Source of the DNA: Minisyncoccia bacterium
GTDB taxonomy: Bacteria > Patescibacteriota > Minisyncoccia > UBA6257 > 2-01-FULL-56-20
Length of the DNA stretch: 64,000 nucleotides
NCBI GenBank assembly: GCA_049997875.1
Contig: JBEKRC010000003.1
Coordinates: 183,885-247,884, forward strand
Reading direction: 5' to 3'
This document shows positions 1-63,834 of this stretch, piece after piece. The first letter of the stretch is position 1, and each line of letters starts with the position of its first letter. The notes beneath the pieces are model-generated. The model was not told the DNA's origin and searched no databases. It saw only the letters and a program-made list of their open reading frames with translations. The translations under genes were made by a program, and so were the position numbers.

Positions 1-1402
1 GCTCCTTCGGAAGTTTCGCGTAGGTCCGGATGGAACCGATCGGGCCTTTCCAACCGCGAAGTGTTATATACCGCGGCCTGCAATATCTCATAATCTCAAG
101 ATCAGGTATCGCCACGCGGATCCGATCGCCTTTTTTATATACCTTCCCGCCATGCACGTAATTCGGTCCCGTGTATTCATATTCATCGCACACCTTGAAT
201 GACCTAACACCATCCAAAACATCCAACTTTGTAAGGATCACATTCGGCCCGGTGAGTTTGACCGCCGAATAGCGGACAAGCGGAAGGTCAAGCCATCCGG
301 TCCGGCGAGCGCGGCCGGTCGTTGCGCCATACTCATTCCCTTTTTGCCGGATCGCGATCCCCTGCACAAATTCATCGCGGTCGTTAATGGAAGCGTTTGG
401 ATAATTCTCCGCCTCCGTCCTTCGGCTCGCATGCCTCACGTGCTCGGCGGATTTTTCCCCTCCGAGTTCCGTGGGGAATGGCCCTTCGCCCACGCGCGTC
501 ATGTAGAAGGCCTTCACAATGCCAAAAGTAAGATCAACATTCTGCTCGCGGAGCCCGACGCCCTTCGCAAGTCCCTGGATAGAGCAATCCGACGAAGTGA
601 CGTACGGATACGTTCCGTAATCAACGGAGAGCATGTTGCCCTGCGCGCCTTCAAGAAGGATATTCTTCTTGCCGAGGAAACTGCGCAGCATCGCATCGGT
701 ATCCGCGATGAACGGACGCAGTGCTTTCCCGTACTGCAGATAGCGTTTCGCGATTCGTTCCGTGTTAAAAATATTTTTCGGATGATAGAACTCGCCGCGG
801 TGCAAAATTTCCTGGTGCATGATCTCACGGACGACTCGCGGATCGTAGGTCTTGATCAATCGAATCTTCTCTTCCAAATTCCTGCGCAATTTTTCCCTGA
901 ATACTTTTGGATTCAGAAGATCGTTCACAATGAGCCCAAGGCGTGCGACATGGTCGGTGTACGCGGGCCCCATGCCACGACCCGTCGTGCCGATCTTCCC
1001 GGTTTTTCCCGATGCCTCGCGTACGCGGTCCAAAACGACGTGCTGCGGCAGCACGAGCCGCGCGTTCAGGGCAATCCGCAGGTGTTTCGGAGAAATTCCC
1101 GCCTTCTTCAAGATCGCAATTTCATCCAAAACCGTTCCCGGCTCCACCGCAACTCCCGAGCCGATCACGTTGAGCTTCCTGTGCAACATACCGGACGGCA
1201 GAAGATGGAACACGAATTCCTTTTTGCCCAATTTGACGGTGTGGCCCGCGTTCGCGCCGCCCGTGCCGCGGGCGATGACGTCCGCCCAATGCTCGGCGAA
1301 ATAATCAACGAATTTTCCCTTTCCCGTGTCTCCCCACTGCGTACAGACGATCCCCAGCGTTCGGACGCCCTTCGGAACGCGGGGGTTCGCTTGGGAATGG
1401 GT
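1..1402 (-). CDS. purA: adenylosuccinate synthetase (partial; C-terminal end lies beyond window start)
   Basis: Manual minus-strand translation from ATG at 1402-1400: [36 protein letters not shown] (P-loop GDxGKGK), ...GKTGKIGTTGRGMGPAY..., ...ILTKLDVLDGVRSFKVCDEYEYTGPNYVHGGKVY... Frame is open to position 1. Absent from the ORF track only because it has no in-window stop. Confidence 0.85.
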
Positions 1403-2903: not shown

Positions 2904-3016
2904 AGATGAATTTATTATATGTGATTTCTGGATTTTTGCAAAAGCGGGCAGTACCCCCCACCTCTCCGGCGGCTGGACGACGTCAGTCCTGTTCGCTATC
3001 GCACTATCGCAGAAAA

Positions 3017-3661
3017 CTAGCAGTCAGCAGCTATGCCTTCAACAAGAGAGGGTAGCTCCGACAAGGTAACAATTTTGAAATCTTCTCCGAGATTATCTCC
3101 TTTTTCGGCGACCAACACACATTTGATATCGGCGTTGTGAGCAGCTTCAATATCTTCTTTGTAGTCACCAACATAAAGAGCTTTCGTCCTATCCTTAATT
3201 CCCAGGTGGTCCATGGCTTTAATGATTCCTTCGGGATTCGGTTTGTGATTTTTCACGTCTTCTCTGTCCAAGACAACATCAAAATATTTACGAAGATCAA
3301 ACTTCTTAAGAAGCATCGTGGTAGTTGTTCTGCCGCGACTGGTAATGAGCGCGGTCTTGTAATTCTTTTTTATCGCTTCCAGTACCTCGCTCGCGTGAGC
3401 CATTAAGGTAATTTTGGGCGCAAATGCCACAGACATTTTCTTGCTGTATTCGTAGATGGGCAGAACTTCTTCTTCTGACAAAGATGGCAGCAGTTTTTTT
3501 GTAATATCCAAAGTTTTCAAACCTAGAAGCGGCAAGAAATCTTTTTCTTGCGGAATGGGTAACTTAAAGTGTCTGAAGGTTTCCTGAAAATACTCTATCG
3601 TCGGACGGTTGGAGTCTACTATGACGCCGTCGAGATCAAAAAGTATTGCTTCAATAATCAT
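3017..3661 (-). CDS. HAD-superfamily hydrolase (subfamily IA phosphatase-like)
   Basis: N-terminal motif I ILFDLDGVIVDS, motif IV VGDYKEDIEAA. Lower GC than neighbours; embedded in the pur operon. Confidence 0.8.
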   Translation of the reverse strand: MIIEAILFDLDGVIVDSNRPTIEYFQETFRHFKLPIPQEKDFLPLLGLKTLDITKKLLPSLSEEEVLPIYEYSKKMSVAFAPKITLMAHASEVLEAIKKNYKTALITSRGRTTTTMLLKKFDLRKYFDVVLDREDVKNHKPNPEGIIKAMDHLGIKDRTKALYVGDYKEDIEAAHNADIKCVLVAEKGDNLGEDFKIVTLSELPSLVEGIAADC

Positions 3662-3781
3662 TCCTTAAAGTATATAGCTTTTGCGAAGCGGCATGCATGC
3701 GTTTGCCCGCTCTGGCGGCTGGGCAATGTTCAACCTCGGAAGACCCAACCAGAGAGGATAACCTTTTTGCGCCGGCGGCGT

Positions 3782-4927
3782 TCATTCCTCGCCTGGCGGT
3801 TGCAGAATAATATCTTCCGGTTCAAAGACGACCTCGCGCTTGCCTTCTTCCACGACGCCGAGGTCAAAAAGTTCGCAGCCGGCTTTTTTACCAAGGGAGA
3901 CGGTCCGGTCAACTTCTTCCTTTGGCACGAAAAGATAATAGCCGACGCCCCAGTTAAAGGTCTTTAGGCAATCACGGAGGGAAACGCCGAGTCCGCGCAT
4001 GAACTGGAAAAGCGGTGGCACGGCTGGCCAGTTTTGGATGCGATAGGTGAATGGCCGTTTATCAAACGCGAGCTTGCCGATGCCGTCGCCCGTGCCGGGC
4101 AGGATCGCCGCGATTCGCACATGGGCATTCTGGAGCGCCTCCACAAGCGCGACGTACGAGCGTGTTGGAATCAACGCCTCCTCGCCGAGCGTGGTACCGT
4201 TCGGAAGCTTTGTAAGAAATTTATCGGGAAGTGCAAGCGCCCGCTTGATGACAAGCGATATGCCGTTCGCGTGGAGGCCGGAGGATGCGGCGCCAACGAT
4301 ATGGCATCCCGGCGCAAGTTCTTTCCCAGTAATGAGATTTGTGTTTGGCGCGATAATGCCCGTCGCGCAGCCCGAGAGCGAAGGCGCGGCGAGGACCGGC
4401 GGCTCCGGCTTCATAAGATACTTGAGCGCAGGCGATTCCCCCGCTGGCAGAGCCATCCCGACTTCCTTGCAAATCTTGAAAAATCCTTCGGCCAAATCAT
4501 GGCTGCGTTTCTCATCCGAGAACCATGCGGCATCGCCCACGGCAACCTCATCGGTAAAAATGACGGGCATCGCCCCTTGCGCGATGAGATCGTTCACCGC
4601 CATGAGCGCGGTATCAATGCCAATTGTTTCGTAGTACGTCCTGCCGGTGCCGGCGTTCTGATACATCCACTCCGCAATCCAGTTCTTGTTCCCGAGCCCT
4701 TCCTGCGTCTTGCACCAGAGGTGCGGCAGGCCGCCGCGGTATTCATACACCGCGCCGTGCGCGTGGAGCACATCGTTATTCACGTAGACGCCGCGGCGGT
4801 TTGGGAAAGAAAGCGTCCGCTTTCCCATCGCGATCATCGCCTGCTTGAAGGGTTCCAACTGCGTATAATCCACTCCCGCCTTTGCGTATTCGCTTTTACC
4901 CATCGCTGCCCGTTTATCTTTGGTCAT
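3782..4927 (-). CDS. purM: phosphoribosylformylglycinamidine cyclo-ligase (AIR synthetase)
   Basis: YAKAGVDY N-terminal PurM signature; 381 aa; operon context. Confidence 0.9.
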   Translation of the reverse strand: MTKDKRAAMGKSEYAKAGVDYTQLEPFKQAMIAMGKRTLSFPNRRGVYVNNDVLHAHGAVYEYRGGLPHLWCKTQEGLGNKNWIAEWMYQNAGTGRTYYETIGIDTALMAVNDLIAQGAMPVIFTDEVAVGDAAWFSDEKRSHDLAEGFFKICKEVGMALPAGESPALKYLMKPEPPVLAAPSLSGCATGIIAPNTNLITGKELAPGCHIVGAASSGLHANGISLVIKRALALPDKFLTKLPNGTTLGEEALIPTRSYVALVEALQNAHVRIAAILPGTGDGIGKLAFDKRPFTYRIQNWPAVPPLFQFMRGLGVSLRDCLKTFNWGVGYYLFVPKEEVDRTVSLGKKAGCELFDLGVVEEGKREVVFEPEDIILQPPGEE

Positions 4928-55983: not shown

Positions 55984-56041
55984 TCAGGATATGTGCATAA
56001 AATGTGAAGAACGTTATAAAATATGCCCAAAATAAGGACAA

Positions 56042-56102
56042 TTTATCCACATATATTGGCTTATCCACATATCCACATCCACTAATTTTTCCTCTCATCC
56101 AC
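56042..56102 (+). promoter_or_regulatory. cluster of DnaA-box-like sites in a divergent promoter region (2x TTATCCACA, ATATCCACA, TCATCCACG), adjacent AT-rich stretch
   Basis: TTATCCACA at 56042 and 56060, ATATCCACA at 56068, TCATCCACG at 56094. Located 60-120 bp upstream of the minus-strand promoter and ~100 bp upstream of the plus-strand promoter. Confidence 0.5.
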
Positions 56103-56168
56103 GCCAATTAGTCTTCCCTTCTGCGCAGAAATGGATCCCGCCTTTGCCCAAAAAGCTGCCTTATGGGC

Positions 56169-56198
56169 TTGCAATATTCAGCAATACCATGGTATAAT
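56169..56198 (+). promoter_or_regulatory. strong sigma70-like promoter (TTGCAA-18nt-TATAAT) for the RRM gene
   Basis: TTGCAA at 56169-56174, TATAAT at 56193-56198. Confidence 0.6.
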
Positions 56199-56235
56199 AC
56201 AAACGTTGTAAGTGTTCTTAGTAGGTTTCGCCTGT

Positions 56236-56301
56236 CCAGTCGTAGTTTTGCACGTGATGCCGTGCGTGAATATCAAGCATGATGAGCAAAACTACGGCTG
56301 G
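56236..56301 (+). promoter_or_regulatory. long hairpin in the 5' leader of the RRM gene (16-bp stem with one G-U, 34-nt loop)
   Basis: CCAGTCGTAGTTTTGC at 56236-56251 pairs with GCAAAACTACGGCTGG at 56286-56301. Confidence 0.6.
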
Positions 56302-56400
56302 AGAGCAAGCAGAGGAGAAGTAGGTCGCCTTACACAAAAATAGCAAAACAGAGAATCCGGCACCAAATTGTTTTCGCGAGAAGGCGCTGGGTTGTATTTA

Positions 56401-56706
56401 ATGGCTACAAAATTATACGTTGGGGGTTTGCCCTACACCACGACGCAGGATGAGCTTCAGGCTGCGTTCGCGCAGGCCGGCACCGTTTCGTCCACAACCA
56501 TCATTGTGGACAAGATGACGGGCCGCTCGCGCGGGTTCGGTTTCGTCGAAATGGCATCCGACGAGGACGCCCAGAAGGCGATCGAGATGTGGAACGGCAA
56601 GGACTTCGGCGGCCGCAAGTTGACCGTGAACGAAGCCAAGCCCCTTGAGCAGCGCGCTCCTCGGAGCGGCGGCGGCGGCTACGGCGGCGGACGCCAGAGC
56701 TGGTAG
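56401..56706 (+). CDS. RRM-domain glycine-rich RNA-binding protein
   Basis: RNP-2 LYVGGL and RNP-1 RGFGFVEM; C-terminal GGGGYGGGRQ tail. Start at MATKLYVGGL; the ORF-track start at 56368 is less likely. Confidence 0.85.
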   Translation: MATKLYVGGLPYTTTQDELQAAFAQAGTVSSTTIIVDKMTGRSRGFGFVEMASDEDAQKAIEMWNGKDFGGRKLTVNEAKPLEQRAPRSGGGGYGGGRQSW

Positions 56707-56731
56707 GTTCCGCTTAACTGCAGAAACAAAA

Positions 56732-56758
56732 ATCCCGCAGCAATGCGGGGTTTTTGGT
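56732..56758 (+). terminator. rho-independent terminator
   Basis: AATCCCGCAgcaaTGCGGGGTTTTT immediately after the RRM gene stop. Confidence 0.8.
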
Positions 56759-57072
56759 TTCCGATTTTTAGAAACCGCGCAGATTTGACTTTCGCAAAAC
56801 CCTAAACTATTATCATGAGAATTAAAGGTCGGAAGTAATATGCTTTCTTATTTTAGAAATGTCTTAGAACAATCAGGGCCTAAGGGAGTATAAAAACCCC
56901 AAAAGACACCTAAGAGCCTGCGGCGCCCATTAGGACACCAACGGCGTAGTGCTAATTTGGGTCCTCCTGTCCCAAACTCGTAATGATTAAGTTCCGCTAT
57001 CCTTGGGCGGGCATCGCTTCGCGCACAGGCGACTAAGTCGAATCATGTTGCGCAAAATTAAAAATTATTATT

Positions 57073-58134
57073 ATGAACATCGCTTTTGTAATCATTTTCC
57101 TGGTTATACTCATCGTAGGGTTCTGGATTATCCTGCGTGAGATTCAGAAGAAATCGAGTGGGTCAAATGATGACCAGGCACTGCTCCTAATCCAAAATCA
57201 GATCAATGAGCTTACCCACGCTCTTGAAGCTAAACTCGGCGAATCGGCGAAGGCGATCACCGATTCTACTAATAAGGCGTTCGCCCAAGCGACCAAAAGC
57301 GCAGAACTTATAAAAGAAATTACCCAAGAGCTTGCGAAGGTCGGCGAAGGACAGCGTCAAGTGGCAAGCATCGCGGACAATCTGAAGAGCCTGCAAGACA
57401 TCCTTAAAAACCCGAAGCAGCGCGGTGTCTTGGGCGAATACTACCTGGAAACGGTCCTTAAGAATGTGCTGCCTCCGAACGCCTATAAGATACAGTATGA
57501 ATTCAAAGATGGAACCATTGTAGATGCCGTTATCATCACGAAGAATGGACTGATTCCAATAGATTCAAAGTTCAGTTTGGAAAATTACAATCGAATTCTT
57601 GAGTCCTCTGACAAAGCAGAGCGGGAGCGATATGAAACCGCTTTCGCAAACGATCTAAAAACCCGGATTGATGAAACTGCCAAATACGTGAAACCTGAGG
57701 AGGGTACGCTTGATTTTGCTTTCATGTTCATTCCATCGGAAGCGGTGTATTACGATCTTCTTGTTAATAAAGTAGGTGCCATTAAATCAAATAACGTAGA
57801 TCTTATTGAGTATGCGGCAGGAAAGAAAAAGGTGATGGTTGTATCTCCCACCACTTTCTTGGCATATTTGCAAACCGTCCTTCAGGGGTTGAAAGCGCTA
57901 CGGATAGAAGAAACGGCGAAGAAAATTGCTGAGCGGGTGAGCGAGCTGGGCAAACACTTGCTAAGCTACCAGGAATACATGCAAAAGGTTGGGAAAAATC
58001 TTACCGTTACTGTTTCGGCTTATAATTCCGCAGGCAAAGAATTCGGGAAAATAAACAAAGATGTGTACAGAATTACCGGAGATGAACTGAACCTTGAGGC
58101 ACCTTCAATTGAAAAGCCGGAAGAAACTACATAA
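57073..58134 (+). CDS. rmuC: DNA recombination protein RmuC
   Basis: N-terminal TM, coiled coil, QRGVLGEYYLETVLKNVLP...YKIQYEF (RmuC core). Confidence 0.85.
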   Translation: MNIAFVIIFLVILIVGFWIILREIQKKSSGSNDDQALLLIQNQINELTHALEAKLGESAKAITDSTNKAFAQATKSAELIKEITQELAKVGEGQRQVASIADNLKSLQDILKNPKQRGVLGEYYLETVLKNVLPPNAYKIQYEFKDGTIVDAVIITKNGLIPIDSKFSLENYNRILESSDKAERERYETAFANDLKTRIDETAKYVKPEEGTLDFAFMFIPSEAVYYDLLVNKVGAIKSNNVDLIEYAAGKKKVMVVSPTTFLAYLQTVLQGLKALRIEETAKKIAERVSELGKHLLSYQEYMQKVGKNLTVTVSAYNSAGKEFGKINKDVYRITGDELNLEAPSIEKPEETT

Positions 58135-60753: not shown

Positions 60754-60921
60754 ATCCTCCTTATTTTATGCGGTGCGAGGGGCAACCGCAACTGTGCATT
60801 GGCCGCACATTAAAAAATCATTAAGGAATGCTTGACTTTACCTCCGTATCGCAATACTGTGCCAATAGCCCGCGCGAGACGTCAGTCTCTATCGGCTCAG
60901 CTGGTAGCGGGCATGCTAAAG

Positions 60922-60946
60922 AATCTCCTCCGGGAGATTTTTTATT
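60922..60946 (+). terminator. plus-strand intrinsic-terminator-like hairpin with no plus-strand CDS upstream
   Basis: AATCTCCtccgGGAGATT followed by TTTTATTT; a candidate promoter TTGACT-17-TACTGT lies at 60832-60860. Confidence 0.4.
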
Positions 60947-61889: not shown

Positions 61890-61916
61890 TCGCGTGTAGT
61901 TCCGGAGTCATCGGTG

Positions 61917-62156
61917 TCAAGCGCCCCTTTCTTTGGGTGCCTCCAATACCTTGCAAAGTACCCGCCAAAGCAAAGAGCCGAAAACCCCGAGGGCGCTGAT
62001 GAATGTAATGGCAATGGTGAGAAAGAGGAGAATGGCCGCCGCATGCTCACCGGTCTCGCCATGCCATAGGTCGGCGCGGATGGTGCGAACCATCACGGCC
62101 AACCCAAGAAGGCCGAGCGCGAGCATTCCGAGAAATTTCTTCATGTGGTCCTCCAC
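61917..62156 (-). CDS. small two-TM membrane protein (hypothetical)
   Basis: 79 aa, two hydrophobic helices. Confidence 0.4.
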   Translation of the reverse strand: MEDHMKKFLGMLALGLLGLAVMVRTIRADLWHGETGEHAAAILLFLTIAITFISALGVFGSLLWRVLCKVLEAPKERGA

Positions 62157-62276: not shown

Positions 62277-62888
62277 TTAAATTATGATGCCGTTCTTTTT
62301 GAGGTCCGATTCTAGTTGCGCTAGGTTTTGGAACAGGATTGCTTTCATTCCGTGTCGTTGTGCAGAATCGATAAACTCTGGGTCATCGTCGACACAAAGA
62401 CACTCTTCCGGTTGAACGCCGATTCTTTCCAGGACGACATCGTAGAAATTCGGCTCGTATTTATGAACCCCGATTTCATAGGAAAGAATAAAGTCGTCAA
62501 AATCGTTTTTCAGATGATACTTTTCGTCAAGGTAATCAATCCTTTCTTTTATGTTTCCAGAGCAAGCGACAACCTTAAACCTCTTTCTCAGTTTAGAAAT
62601 CAAATCTTTCATTCCTTCAATGGGTTCGTAAGAAGAATGCCAAGCCTCTTTCAACGTAGGAATCAAATCCTCGCCGACGCCCAATCTTCTGACGGCTGTC
62701 CGCCAGAATTCTTTTTCGGTGAGTTGCCCTTTTCGATACCAAAATCCCTCCTTTCGAGGAGAAGAATTAAAAATTTCGTTGATGATATCTTTCGGCCGGT
62801 TGGTCAATTCGCATATCTTTTGCATTCCTATGCTGGTCCCCTTGGTGAAGTAAACTCCACCTAAATCAACGAGGATTACTTTGATCAT
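62277..62888 (-). CDS. HAD-like hydrolase
   Basis: N-terminal VILVDLGGV and C-terminal CVDDDPEFIDSAQRHGMKAILF motif IV-like; markedly lower GC than its flanks. Confidence 0.6.
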   Translation of the reverse strand: MIKVILVDLGGVYFTKGTSIGMQKICELTNRPKDIINEIFNSSPRKEGFWYRKGQLTEKEFWRTAVRRLGVGEDLIPTLKEAWHSSYEPIEGMKDLISKLRKRFKVVACSGNIKERIDYLDEKYHLKNDFDDFILSYEIGVHKYEPNFYDVVLERIGVQPEECLCVDDDPEFIDSAQRHGMKAILFQNLAQLESDLKKNGIII

Positions 62889-62958: not shown

Positions 62959-63177
62959 CTAGCTCAAAAGCCCGAGTTTCTTCATCCGCTCTACTTCTGC
63001 CCGCTTCGCATCGCGGTGGATTGCCGAGAGTTTGCGTTTGATCCGGCTTACCGGGCGATCGTGGAACTTACGCGCGCGCGCTTCCTTCAAAATGCCGCTC
63101 CGCTTCACTTTTTTTGTGAAGCTGAAAAGTATGCTATTCGGGGATTCTCCCTCCCGTTTTCGTACTTCAACTGCCAT
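62959..63177 (-). CDS. rpsU: 30S ribosomal protein S21
   Basis: MAVEVRKREGESPNSILFSFTKKVKRSGILKEARARKFHDRP...RKLSAIHRDAKR typical bS21. Confidence 0.88.
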   Translation of the reverse strand: MAVEVRKREGESPNSILFSFTKKVKRSGILKEARARKFHDRPVSRIKRKLSAIHRDAKRAEVERMKKLGLLS

Positions 63178-63251
63178 GGAAGATAGTATATATGAATTAA
63201 ACTCTTAGTCAACCGTTGAAATAACTGACAGCAAAAAAACATTGGTGGCCG

Positions 63252-63411
63252 TAGGCATCTTGCTTGTGGTTCTGGAGAGGATCGCGCAGCCCCGCTCGGC
63301 TTGGTCCGAAATACCATTGCGTGTATTTCGGCGAGCGGGGCGAGCGGCAAGAAAAAATCCCCGCTGGAGGGATTTTATTCTGGCTCTCCAGAACCACAAG
63401 CAAGATGCCTA
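63252..63411. repeat. 160-bp element bounded by 28-bp perfect inverted repeats enclosing nested hairpins
   Basis: TAGGCATCTTGCTTGTGGTTCTGGAGAG at 63252-63279 is the exact reverse complement of 63384-63411. Internal stems CCGAAATA/TATTTCGG, CCCCGCTCG/CGAGCGGGG and AAAATCCC/GGGATTTT. Confidence 0.8.
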
Positions 63412-63834
63412 TGACACAATTTTCTTGCGTATCTCTTCCAAGGTCTCTTTCGGTTTCCTGTTCACCAGTGACTGGACAGGCCCTCCCCCGTCGCCATACC
63501 ACCGGGGCATCAAATGCACATGGAGATGGTCCACCACCTGGCCGCTCGCGCGGCCCTGGTTGATCCCGACCGTGATGCCGTCGCACTTCAATTTCCGCGA
63601 GAGCATCCCCGCCACTTTCTTCACCGCCGCGAAGAGCGGCGCGACTTCGGCGTCCGGCAGTTCAAGAAAATTTGGCACATGCGTTTTTGGGATCACCATG
63701 GTGTGCCCGGACGTCCGCGGTGCGATGTCCAAGAACGCGAACGCGCGGTCATCTTCGTACACCACCTGCGCCGGAATTTCCCCGGACGCTATTTTGCAGA
63801 AAATGCAATTCTTGTCTCGCGTTGGTTCCTGCAT
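63409..63834 (-). CDS. HIT-family hydrolase
   Basis: Histidine triad HLHVHLMP; 141 aa. Confidence 0.88.
   Translation of the reverse strand: MQEPTRDKNCIFCKIASGEIPAQVVYEDDRAFAFLDIAPRTSGHTMVIPKTHVPNFLELPDAEVAPLFAAVKKVAGMLSRKLKCDGITVGINQGRASGQVVDHLHVHLMPRWYGDGGGPVQSLVNRKPKETLEEIRKKIVS

Follow-up and report, generated by a model that had tools for sequence, protein, structure and literature searches.

What is a perfect 28-nt inverted repeat doing between the gene for a HIT-family protein and rpsU in the genome of a Minisyncoccia bacterium? The question arose from an initial annotation of the window, by which we mean the whole 64-kb stretch of DNA analyzed here. This annotation described a 160-bp element with perfect 28-bp terminal inverted repeats and inner hairpins, overlapping the HIT stop codon and lying upstream of rpsU, and it considered a MITE or small transposon, an RNase III processing site and an autoregulatory leader of the ribosomal protein gene. 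Coordinates, a mismatch scan and shuffled sequences confirmed the terminal repeats and the length of 160 bp. Likewise, the inner hairpins proved to contain perfect stems of 10, 9 and 8-9 bp, and the ORF coordinates bore out both the overlap with the HIT stop and the site upstream of rpsU.

Anatomy of the inverted-repeat element

The element occupies positions 63252-63411, in the non-coding spacer between HIT and rpsU, with the perfect 28-nt inverted repeat forming its arms. Local gene order, all on the minus strand, is hisS, HIT, element, rpsU, HAD hydrolase, YqeY, YbeY, FtsA, FtsZ. On the gene strand the parts of the element follow one another as 5' arm, 7-nt linker, H1, H2 and 3' arm:

63384 to 63411, minus strand: 5' arm, TAGGCATCTTGCTTGTGGTTCTGGAGAG, whose first 3 bases are the HIT stop TAG (63409-63411)
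63348 to 63376, minus strand: H1 (hairpin 63354-63376), AAAAUCCCU CCAGC GGGGAUUUU UUCUUG, -11.4 kcal/mol
63284 to 63347, minus strand: H2, a GC-rich nested hairpin of 64 nt, -36.4 kcal/mol
63289 to 63298 with 63332 to 63341, minus strand: outer stem of H2, 10 bp
63306 to 63314 with 63323 to 63331, minus strand: inner stem of H2, 9 bp, the stems of H2 having an 8-nt loop and a 7-nt bulge
63252 to 63279, minus strand: 3' arm, the exact reverse complement of the 5' arm

The arm sequence TAGGCATCTTGCTTGTGGTTCTGGAGAG, found at 63252-63279, pairs with 63384-63411 at 28/28 nt, and 104 nt lie between the arms. This interior contributes 3 more perfect stems, those of 10 bp and 9 bp nested in H2 and that of H1, an 8-9-bp A-tract/U-tract hairpin. 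The 3' side of H2 is formed by a tandem 9-nt repeat (GGCGAGCGG x2 at 63330-63347 on the plus strand), which is consistent with growth of the region via local duplication. The arms are by far the best inverted repeat of the window, and in 64 kb of random sequence only ~5e-10 perfect inverted repeats of 28 nt would be expected within 600 nt. Further matches to the 28-mer with 3 or fewer mismatches were found neither in the 64 kb nor in 100 shuffles. The predicted fold of the element is a three-way junction, with an energy of -108.6 kcal/mol on the gene strand (z = -14.1 vs shuffles) and of -111.5 kcal/mol on the opposite strand (z = -11.1 vs shuffles).

Seven further contigs, assembled from independent samples (ENA, JGI and Logan), carry an element identical base for base, ruling out an assembly artefact. 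All 8 assemblies carry it in one orientation. The assemblies of the window species represent one population that is at least 99.96% identical, and polymorphism within the species is uninformative.

The predicted HIT terminator and the rpsU promoter

The roles open to the element depend on the transcription signals around it. The flanking genes and the signals between the element and rpsU are as follows:

63409 to 63834, minus strand: gene for a HIT-family protein of 141 aa (Pfam HIT), the last gene of the hisS-HIT unit
63233 to 63239, minus strand: T7 run, 12 nt past the 3' arm and 20 nt before the -35 box
63185 to 63212, minus strand: rpsU promoter TTGACT-16-TATACT, sigma-70-like, ending 7 nt before the ATG
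62959 to 63177, minus strand: rpsU, encoding ribosomal protein S21 of 72 aa (Pfam Ribosomal_S21), with its own terminator at 62924-62910

H1 begins 33 nt past the HIT stop and consists of an A-tract, an 8-9-bp stem (9 pairs, 3 of them G-C), a 5-nt loop and a U-tract tail with 8 U in 10 nt, that is, the stem-loop and U-tract after a stop codon by which Rho-independent terminators are recognized. The same design recurs after the RRM gene at 56728-56755 (plus strand), after rpsU at 62924-62910 (minus strand) and at 60919-60942 (plus strand). From these features H1 is predicted to be the Rho-independent terminator of the hisS-HIT unit. It is terminator-like on the plus strand as well, while its sole wobble pair (U-G) exists on the gene strand alone. 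A consensus terminator scan of the window did not list H1, presumably due to partial pairing of its U-tract with its A-tract. If H1 does serve as the HIT terminator, most HIT transcripts should stop inside the element, before the 3' arm. The long stem, by comparison, has no U-tract directly after it, the T7 run being too far away, and is thus not itself a canonical terminator. H1 shares the design of A-tract, GC stem and U-tract with ordinary (bidirectional) Rho-independent terminators. In contrast to these, it is enclosed by an extra 28-bp stem and accompanied by a second hairpin of 60 nt, which go far beyond the needs of termination.

rpsU has no Shine-Dalgarno sequence, and its promoter lies downstream of the element, between the element and the gene. 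Every relative examined, with or without the element, has the -35 box TTGAC and the -10 box TATACT, the latter at the same 7 nt from the ATG. The layout TTGAC(T)-16..18-TATACT was seen in L012, L013, L016, L020, L025, L026 and L028, and it persists across lineages whose four-fold sites are near saturation. Judged by these signals, rpsU appears to be of a leaderless type. Since the promoter stands between the element and rpsU, the element belongs to the 3' region of the hisS-HIT unit and not to an rpsU leader. At the other border, relatives end HIT at the homologous codon, L020 adding one residue, and the stop is TAG in L012, L013, L016 and L026, indicating that the TAG belongs to the host HIT gene.

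The RRM gene mentioned above encodes an RRM-type RNA-binding protein, with an ATG at ~56403 (the mechanical ORF call starts from 56368) and a TATAAT box upstream at ~56193. Its upstream region (56192-56400) holds an imperfect hairpin (56232-56260/56277-56305, with 29-nt arms that are 83% complementary and a 16-nt loop) that may, from its sequence and position, be a structured 5' UTR. By coincidence, the 3' end of this hairpin, CTGGAGAG, matches the inner end of the element's 28-nt arm. Between the RRM terminator and the next gene, ~317 nt (56756-57072) contained no ORF of at least 70 aa and gave no Rfam match at gathering. G+C is low nearby (0.47 in the 56001-58000 bin vs ~0.56 elsewhere).

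Turnover of the HIT–rpsU spacer and age of the stems

The flanking genes of the sister genomes L012 and L013 are ~91% identical to those of the window species, and their four-fold sites 80-89%. Over the stretch between the HIT stop and the -10 box, the window and these 2 genomes were identical only at the level of random sequence (0.30-0.43), and identity between L012 and L013 themselves was 0.78-0.95. Homology between the window spacer and the L012-type spacer was found neither by blastn nor by local alignment (z = 0.6-2.1 vs shuffles). The best local match covers the 3' half of the terminator and GCTCGC; at 21/27 identical positions it is only suggestive. L012 and L013 carry their own 24-27-bp inverted repeat at the same site (CTGCRCACGAATTGATTTT...), with ~118 nt between the arms. 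The stem comprises 27 bp with one U-G in L012 and 24 bp with 2 mismatches in L013, and the L012-type element folds as a 170-190-nt rod with internal loops and an apical A-tract/U-tract hairpin.

Other relatives displayed further states of the spacer. In L026 and L027 (HIT 80% identical) the L012-type arms are retained over 20 bp, with 2 mismatches, around a loop of only 22 nt, such that arm spacing among the relatives ranges from 22 to 118 nt. L025 has another upstream gene, and its L012-type 5' arm is cut to 10 nt while the 3' arm is largely conserved. In the more distant L020 and L028 the HIT–rpsU gap measures only 48 and 43 nt, respectively, which is essentially the promoter alone, with no element. 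Finally, in L014/L015, L016 and L017, also more distant, the space between HIT and rpsU is occupied by other genes. Taken together, we read the HIT–rpsU spacer as a hotspot of turnover, with strain-level insertions. On the same comparisons, the ancestor of a small clade would have acquired the long-hairpin module, which in the window lineage would have given way to a non-homologous one of the same layout. It is unusual to find two unrelated long-stem modules at the same 230-bp site between flanking genes that are 91% identical.

Several observations concern the contigs of individual relatives. Positions 1-330 of L025 contain an orthologue of the RRM gene (window 56368-56706) and a terminator directly upstream of rpsU, with the junction located within the L012-type 5' arm, reflecting either a rearrangement or a chimeric 1.3-kb contig. 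L014/L015 and L016 encode an identical 135-aa HIT protein followed by different inserts (2909-4446 and 2909-4480, respectively). Genes in the HIT–rpsU inserts include one with an OMP-decarboxylase domain (438 aa, opposite strand) and one of 382 aa with a weak radical-SAM match. Downstream of rpsU, the window species has the HAD-family hydrolase (62277-62888) and a 75-aa ORF (~61900-62156). The hydrolase is also found in L013, and both are absent in L012 (site 3882-3955), L020 and L028, indicating that gene content varies on both sides of rpsU. The short contigs L005 and L006, obtained from different samples with different assemblers, both end at the first base of the rpsU ATG (L001 4658), ~13 nt past the border at the -10 box where homology with the sister species resumes. 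These ends hint at strains or species with different spacers co-occurring in those samples. In L028, where the HIT–rpsU site is empty, an IS200/IS605-type Y1 transposase gene (3950-4470, 142 aa) lies between ybeY and ftsA, with an identical hairpin, CCACGGCTTTAGCCGTGG, on both sides (~3956-3973 and 4449-4466). A link of the element to IS200/IS605 or RAYT was considered and rejected, the Y1 transposase occurring in this relative and not in the window.

With respect to constraint, the aligned spacers of L013 and L026 (arms and promoter region) were 87% identical, compared to 60% at four-fold sites (Fisher p = 1e-5). The L012-type arms and promoter region are therefore either constrained or recently exchanged. 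One clean compensatory change was seen by eye, an A-U pair in L012 vs G-C in L013 and L026; the L012-type alignment was too shallow for covariation analysis and is distorted by the L026 deletion and the L025 truncation. For the window element, the four-fold distance between the window and L012 (0.164) would correspond to 4.6 substitutions over the 56 bases of the arms after the two lineages separated, and none was seen (P(0) = 0.01). All 47 stem pairs, comprising the arms and the two inner H2 stems, are perfect (P = 0.0004). None of the 47 is G-U, which has P = 0.007 under a G-U fraction of 10% that is our own estimate; if ~10% is typical, a structure maintained at the RNA level alone would be unlikely to lack G-U pairs. 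Together these values suggest a young origin at the DNA level, by inverted duplication or foldback insertion, or else an active homogenisation of the arms. Perfect Watson-Crick pairing is the kind of trace that a DNA-level process leaves and is by itself no argument for RNA function. Among the non-Watson-Crick positions in the relatives' arms, counted by eye, U-G occurs 3 times on the gene strand and once on the other; together with the gene-strand wobble of H1, this bias may be taken as a weak hint at a sense-RNA function.

Mobile element, regulatory structure or processing signal

The idea of a MITE or small transposon held for the shape of the element but not, in what could be tested, for a second copy or a clear target-site duplication. 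With 160 bp the element lies within the ~50-500 bp of the class, it has no coding capacity and no conserved ORF, and its ends are terminal inverted repeats. No copy or fragment was found elsewhere in the 64-kb window. Exact searches with arm 20-mers in 185,579 species-representative genomes and the JGI contigs returned 2 + 2 unpaired, chance-like hits in unrelated bacteria; the genome and metagenome collections also lacked the element's own locus (though L002 and L003 are JGI contigs), and its own genome was covered for 64 kb only. Window-type arms had no match in viral contigs, phages or plasmids, where the L012-type arm gave 8 single 17-mer hits, in line with chance. Six-frame translations of both element types, compared with 5.8 billion proteins (E <= 10), gave no hit among the 8000 candidates listed, a weak negative. 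The flanks (...GTGTCA / CGGCCACC...) have no common direct repeat. The annotation's call for a check of target-site duplications thus yielded nothing beyond a possible TA, which is inseparable from the outer 2 bp of the palindrome and is itself part of the host TAG stop. The +/-4 kb around the element contained no transposase or recombinase gene, and the whole window no Y1 transposase.

A solo or low-copy MITE-like foldback that was inserted in the HIT–rpsU spacer or replaced it, with no host function beyond bringing or enclosing a terminator, is the main rival to the explanation that we favor, and we regard it as unlikely. In size, in its perfect ends (26-28 bp), in being non-coding and in its intergenic site beside a gene end, the element resembles Correia elements (PMC10969869), and the MITE families reported include some that number down to 1 copy per genome (PMC10969869). 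The 43-48-nt gaps of the distant relatives look like 'empty' sites, the whole spacer is non-homologous to that of the sister species with sharp borders at the gene ends, the perfect arms suggest a recent arrival, and the spacer is an insertion hotspot in which an identical HIT protein is found with different inserted genes. These points have to be set against the searches described above, which produced no second copy or fragment in 64 kb, only chance-like 20-mer hits elsewhere, nothing in viral, phage and plasmid sets and no translated copies among the matches listed (5.8e9 proteins), as well as no transposase nearby. In addition, the only candidate duplication sits in the host TAG at a homologous codon, and the replaced segment also takes in the -35 box and the promoter spacer, which lie outside the inverted repeat.

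The remaining alternatives assign the element a function at the RNA or DNA level, and we consider none of them probable. An autoregulatory mRNA leader of rpsU (S21), as the annotation had proposed from the position upstream of rpsU, deserves virtually no credence: the promoter between element and gene is kept by element-free relatives and leaves a leader of at most ~7 nt, relatives with 82-86% identical S21 have no element, and the sequence is not conserved in sister species with 99% identical S21. The refuting condition that the annotation had named, a lack of conservation upstream of rpsU, spoke against a leader as well, the element being absent in L020 and L028, unalignable with L012 and L013 and deleted in its interior in L026. 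It is improbable, albeit less so, that the element acts as a DNA structure upstream of the rpsU promoter, either a cruciform or paired inverted protein sites, tuning the promoter or absorbing supercoiling. Such a role would account for the Watson-Crick pairing without G-U, for the conservation of most of the L012-type 3' arm in L025 despite the loss of its partner, for an arm and promoter region more conserved than synonymous sites, and for the position of the 3' arm, which ends 28-40 nt before the -35 box. However, an arm spacing of 22-118 nt is not tolerable for a paired protein site, long spacers generally disfavor cruciform extrusion, the arm sequence is wholly different in the sister species while the promoter hexamers are the same, and element-free lineages use the same promoter. 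We find it highly improbable that the element is a stand-alone or processed small structured RNA gene, for instance a regulatory RNA, 6S-like or otherwise. The fold has a very high stability (z = -14) and the L012-type element forms a 170-190-nt rod with internal loops, but neither type has an Rfam match, even at E <= 10, no promoter-like site stands in front on either strand, the interior differs between the two types and is deleted in L026/L027, and the three-way junction of the window element is a different fold from the L012-type rod. An inverton, with the 28-bp repeats as recombinase sites, is scarcely credible. The perfect inverted repeats do surround a short non-palindromic segment at a promoter-proximal site, yet all 8 of 8 assemblies have the same orientation, no promoter-like site lies inside, H1 is terminator-like both ways such that a flip would change little, no recombinase gene lies within +/-4 kb, and only 22 nt separate the arms in L026.

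Several known classes were also considered and set aside. Rfam 15 gave no match at the gathering threshold in the whole window, the best at E <= 10 reaching 11-14 bits vs thresholds of 39-70. 6S, SRP, 5S and Y-RNA had no credible Rfam match, and the interior of the element is non-conserved and deletable. No tRNA or tmRNA was found. Integron attC sites end in RYYYAAC/GTTRRRY, and by eye such ends are absent. A replication origin or terminus was rejected, as the GC skew shows no turn.

The explanation that we favor combines these results. We consider it probable, and state with good confidence, that the element is a foldback confined to one locus and carrying the HIT terminator, that it is no rpsU leader and that it cannot be shown to be a MITE. 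In the fuller form of this explanation, the 3' UTR of the hisS-HIT unit contains a solitary foldback module, upstream of a separate, leaderless-type rpsU promoter. Most transcripts would end at H1, and only RNA that reads through H1 could form the 28-bp duplex. In such RNA a duplex of 20-28 bp would be of the size cut by bacterial RNase III, and the arms might act as a back-up processing or insulating device that separates upstream read-through RNA from the rpsU unit. At the DNA level, the module would be a young inverted duplication or foldback insertion that replaced an older hairpin element in this lineage. Taken as a whole, terminator and RNase III/insulator proposal included, we rate this account slightly short of an even chance.

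The RNase III or insulator role of the arms is the more tentative part of this account, and we hold it to be possible but rather doubtful. RNase III requires a duplex of at least 20 bp (~two helical turns); provided that transcription crosses both arms, the duplex would have 28 bp in the window and 27, 24 and 20 bp in relatives. A stem of 20-28 bp that is kept even with the interior deleted fits an RNase III substrate rather than the needs of a terminator. An RNase III site is thus plausible, although it would apply only to read-through transcripts. An efficient H1 weakens any RNA role of the arms, since the 3' arm would rarely be transcribed and the duplex would be rare. Moreover, the element-free L020 and L028 and the truncated 5' arm of L025 indicate that the stem is dispensable. 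We also asked whether this spot, between HIT and a leaderless rpsU, could in the small clade concerned be under selection for a hairpin of at least 20 bp whatever its sequence, such that a lost module is replaced by an unrelated one with the same architecture; we deem this decidedly unlikely. Similarly small is the probability we attach to a structure-only class of cis-elements, for example an RNase III-dependent operon insulator that guards a leaderless r-protein transcript and is maintained by turnover.

Comparison with known systems places the element between several of them. RNase III processing stems flank rRNAs or sit in operon spacers, where distant complementary segments pair in a polycistronic transcript. 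As here, a perfect duplex of >20 bp formed from distant segments encloses other structure. In contrast to these stems, the duplex of the window would enclose a terminator and not a stable RNA, would form in read-through RNA only, and is known here from sequence. Correia elements, the MITEs of Neisseria, have inverted repeats of 26 bp and TA duplications. They share with our element a size of ~100-200 bp, long terminal inverted repeats, a non-coding nature and an intergenic site. They occur in >120 copies per genome, and their co-transcribed long hairpins are cut by RNase III at the inverted repeats and can carry regulatory signals (PMC10969869). By comparison, one copy was seen here, with no demonstrable duplication and no sequence similarity to Correia elements, and its inner signal is a terminator as opposed to promoters or an IHF site. 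Other small palindromic units in extragenic DNA, located at the 3' ends of genes, resemble terminators, function as such or alter mRNA stability, and they tend to form clusters and to insert into one another (PMC10969869). Those units are multi-copy and defined by their sequence, whereas the element here is confined to a single locus and its counterpart in the sister species differs in sequence. By analogy, the element would work most like Correia or ERIC/SPRITE-type extragenic palindromes, whose co-transcribed copies can act as terminators and as RNase III substrates (PMC10969869), but it lacks their multiplicity.

In summary, this is a feature of an ordinary type with an ordinary terminator core, and only one aspect of it is moderately odd. 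To our knowledge, the ends and the processing of transcripts in CPR (Minisyncoccota) bacteria are almost entirely uncharted. If the long stem is functional, it would be the first cis-acting RNA processing or insulating signal described in a CPR (Minisyncoccota) genome, beside an apparently leaderless rpsU. If it is only a young foldback, the locus would warn against MITE calls made from shape alone and would provide a clean natural case of whole-spacer replacement between 91%-identical flanks, with the layout of hairpin plus terminator kept.
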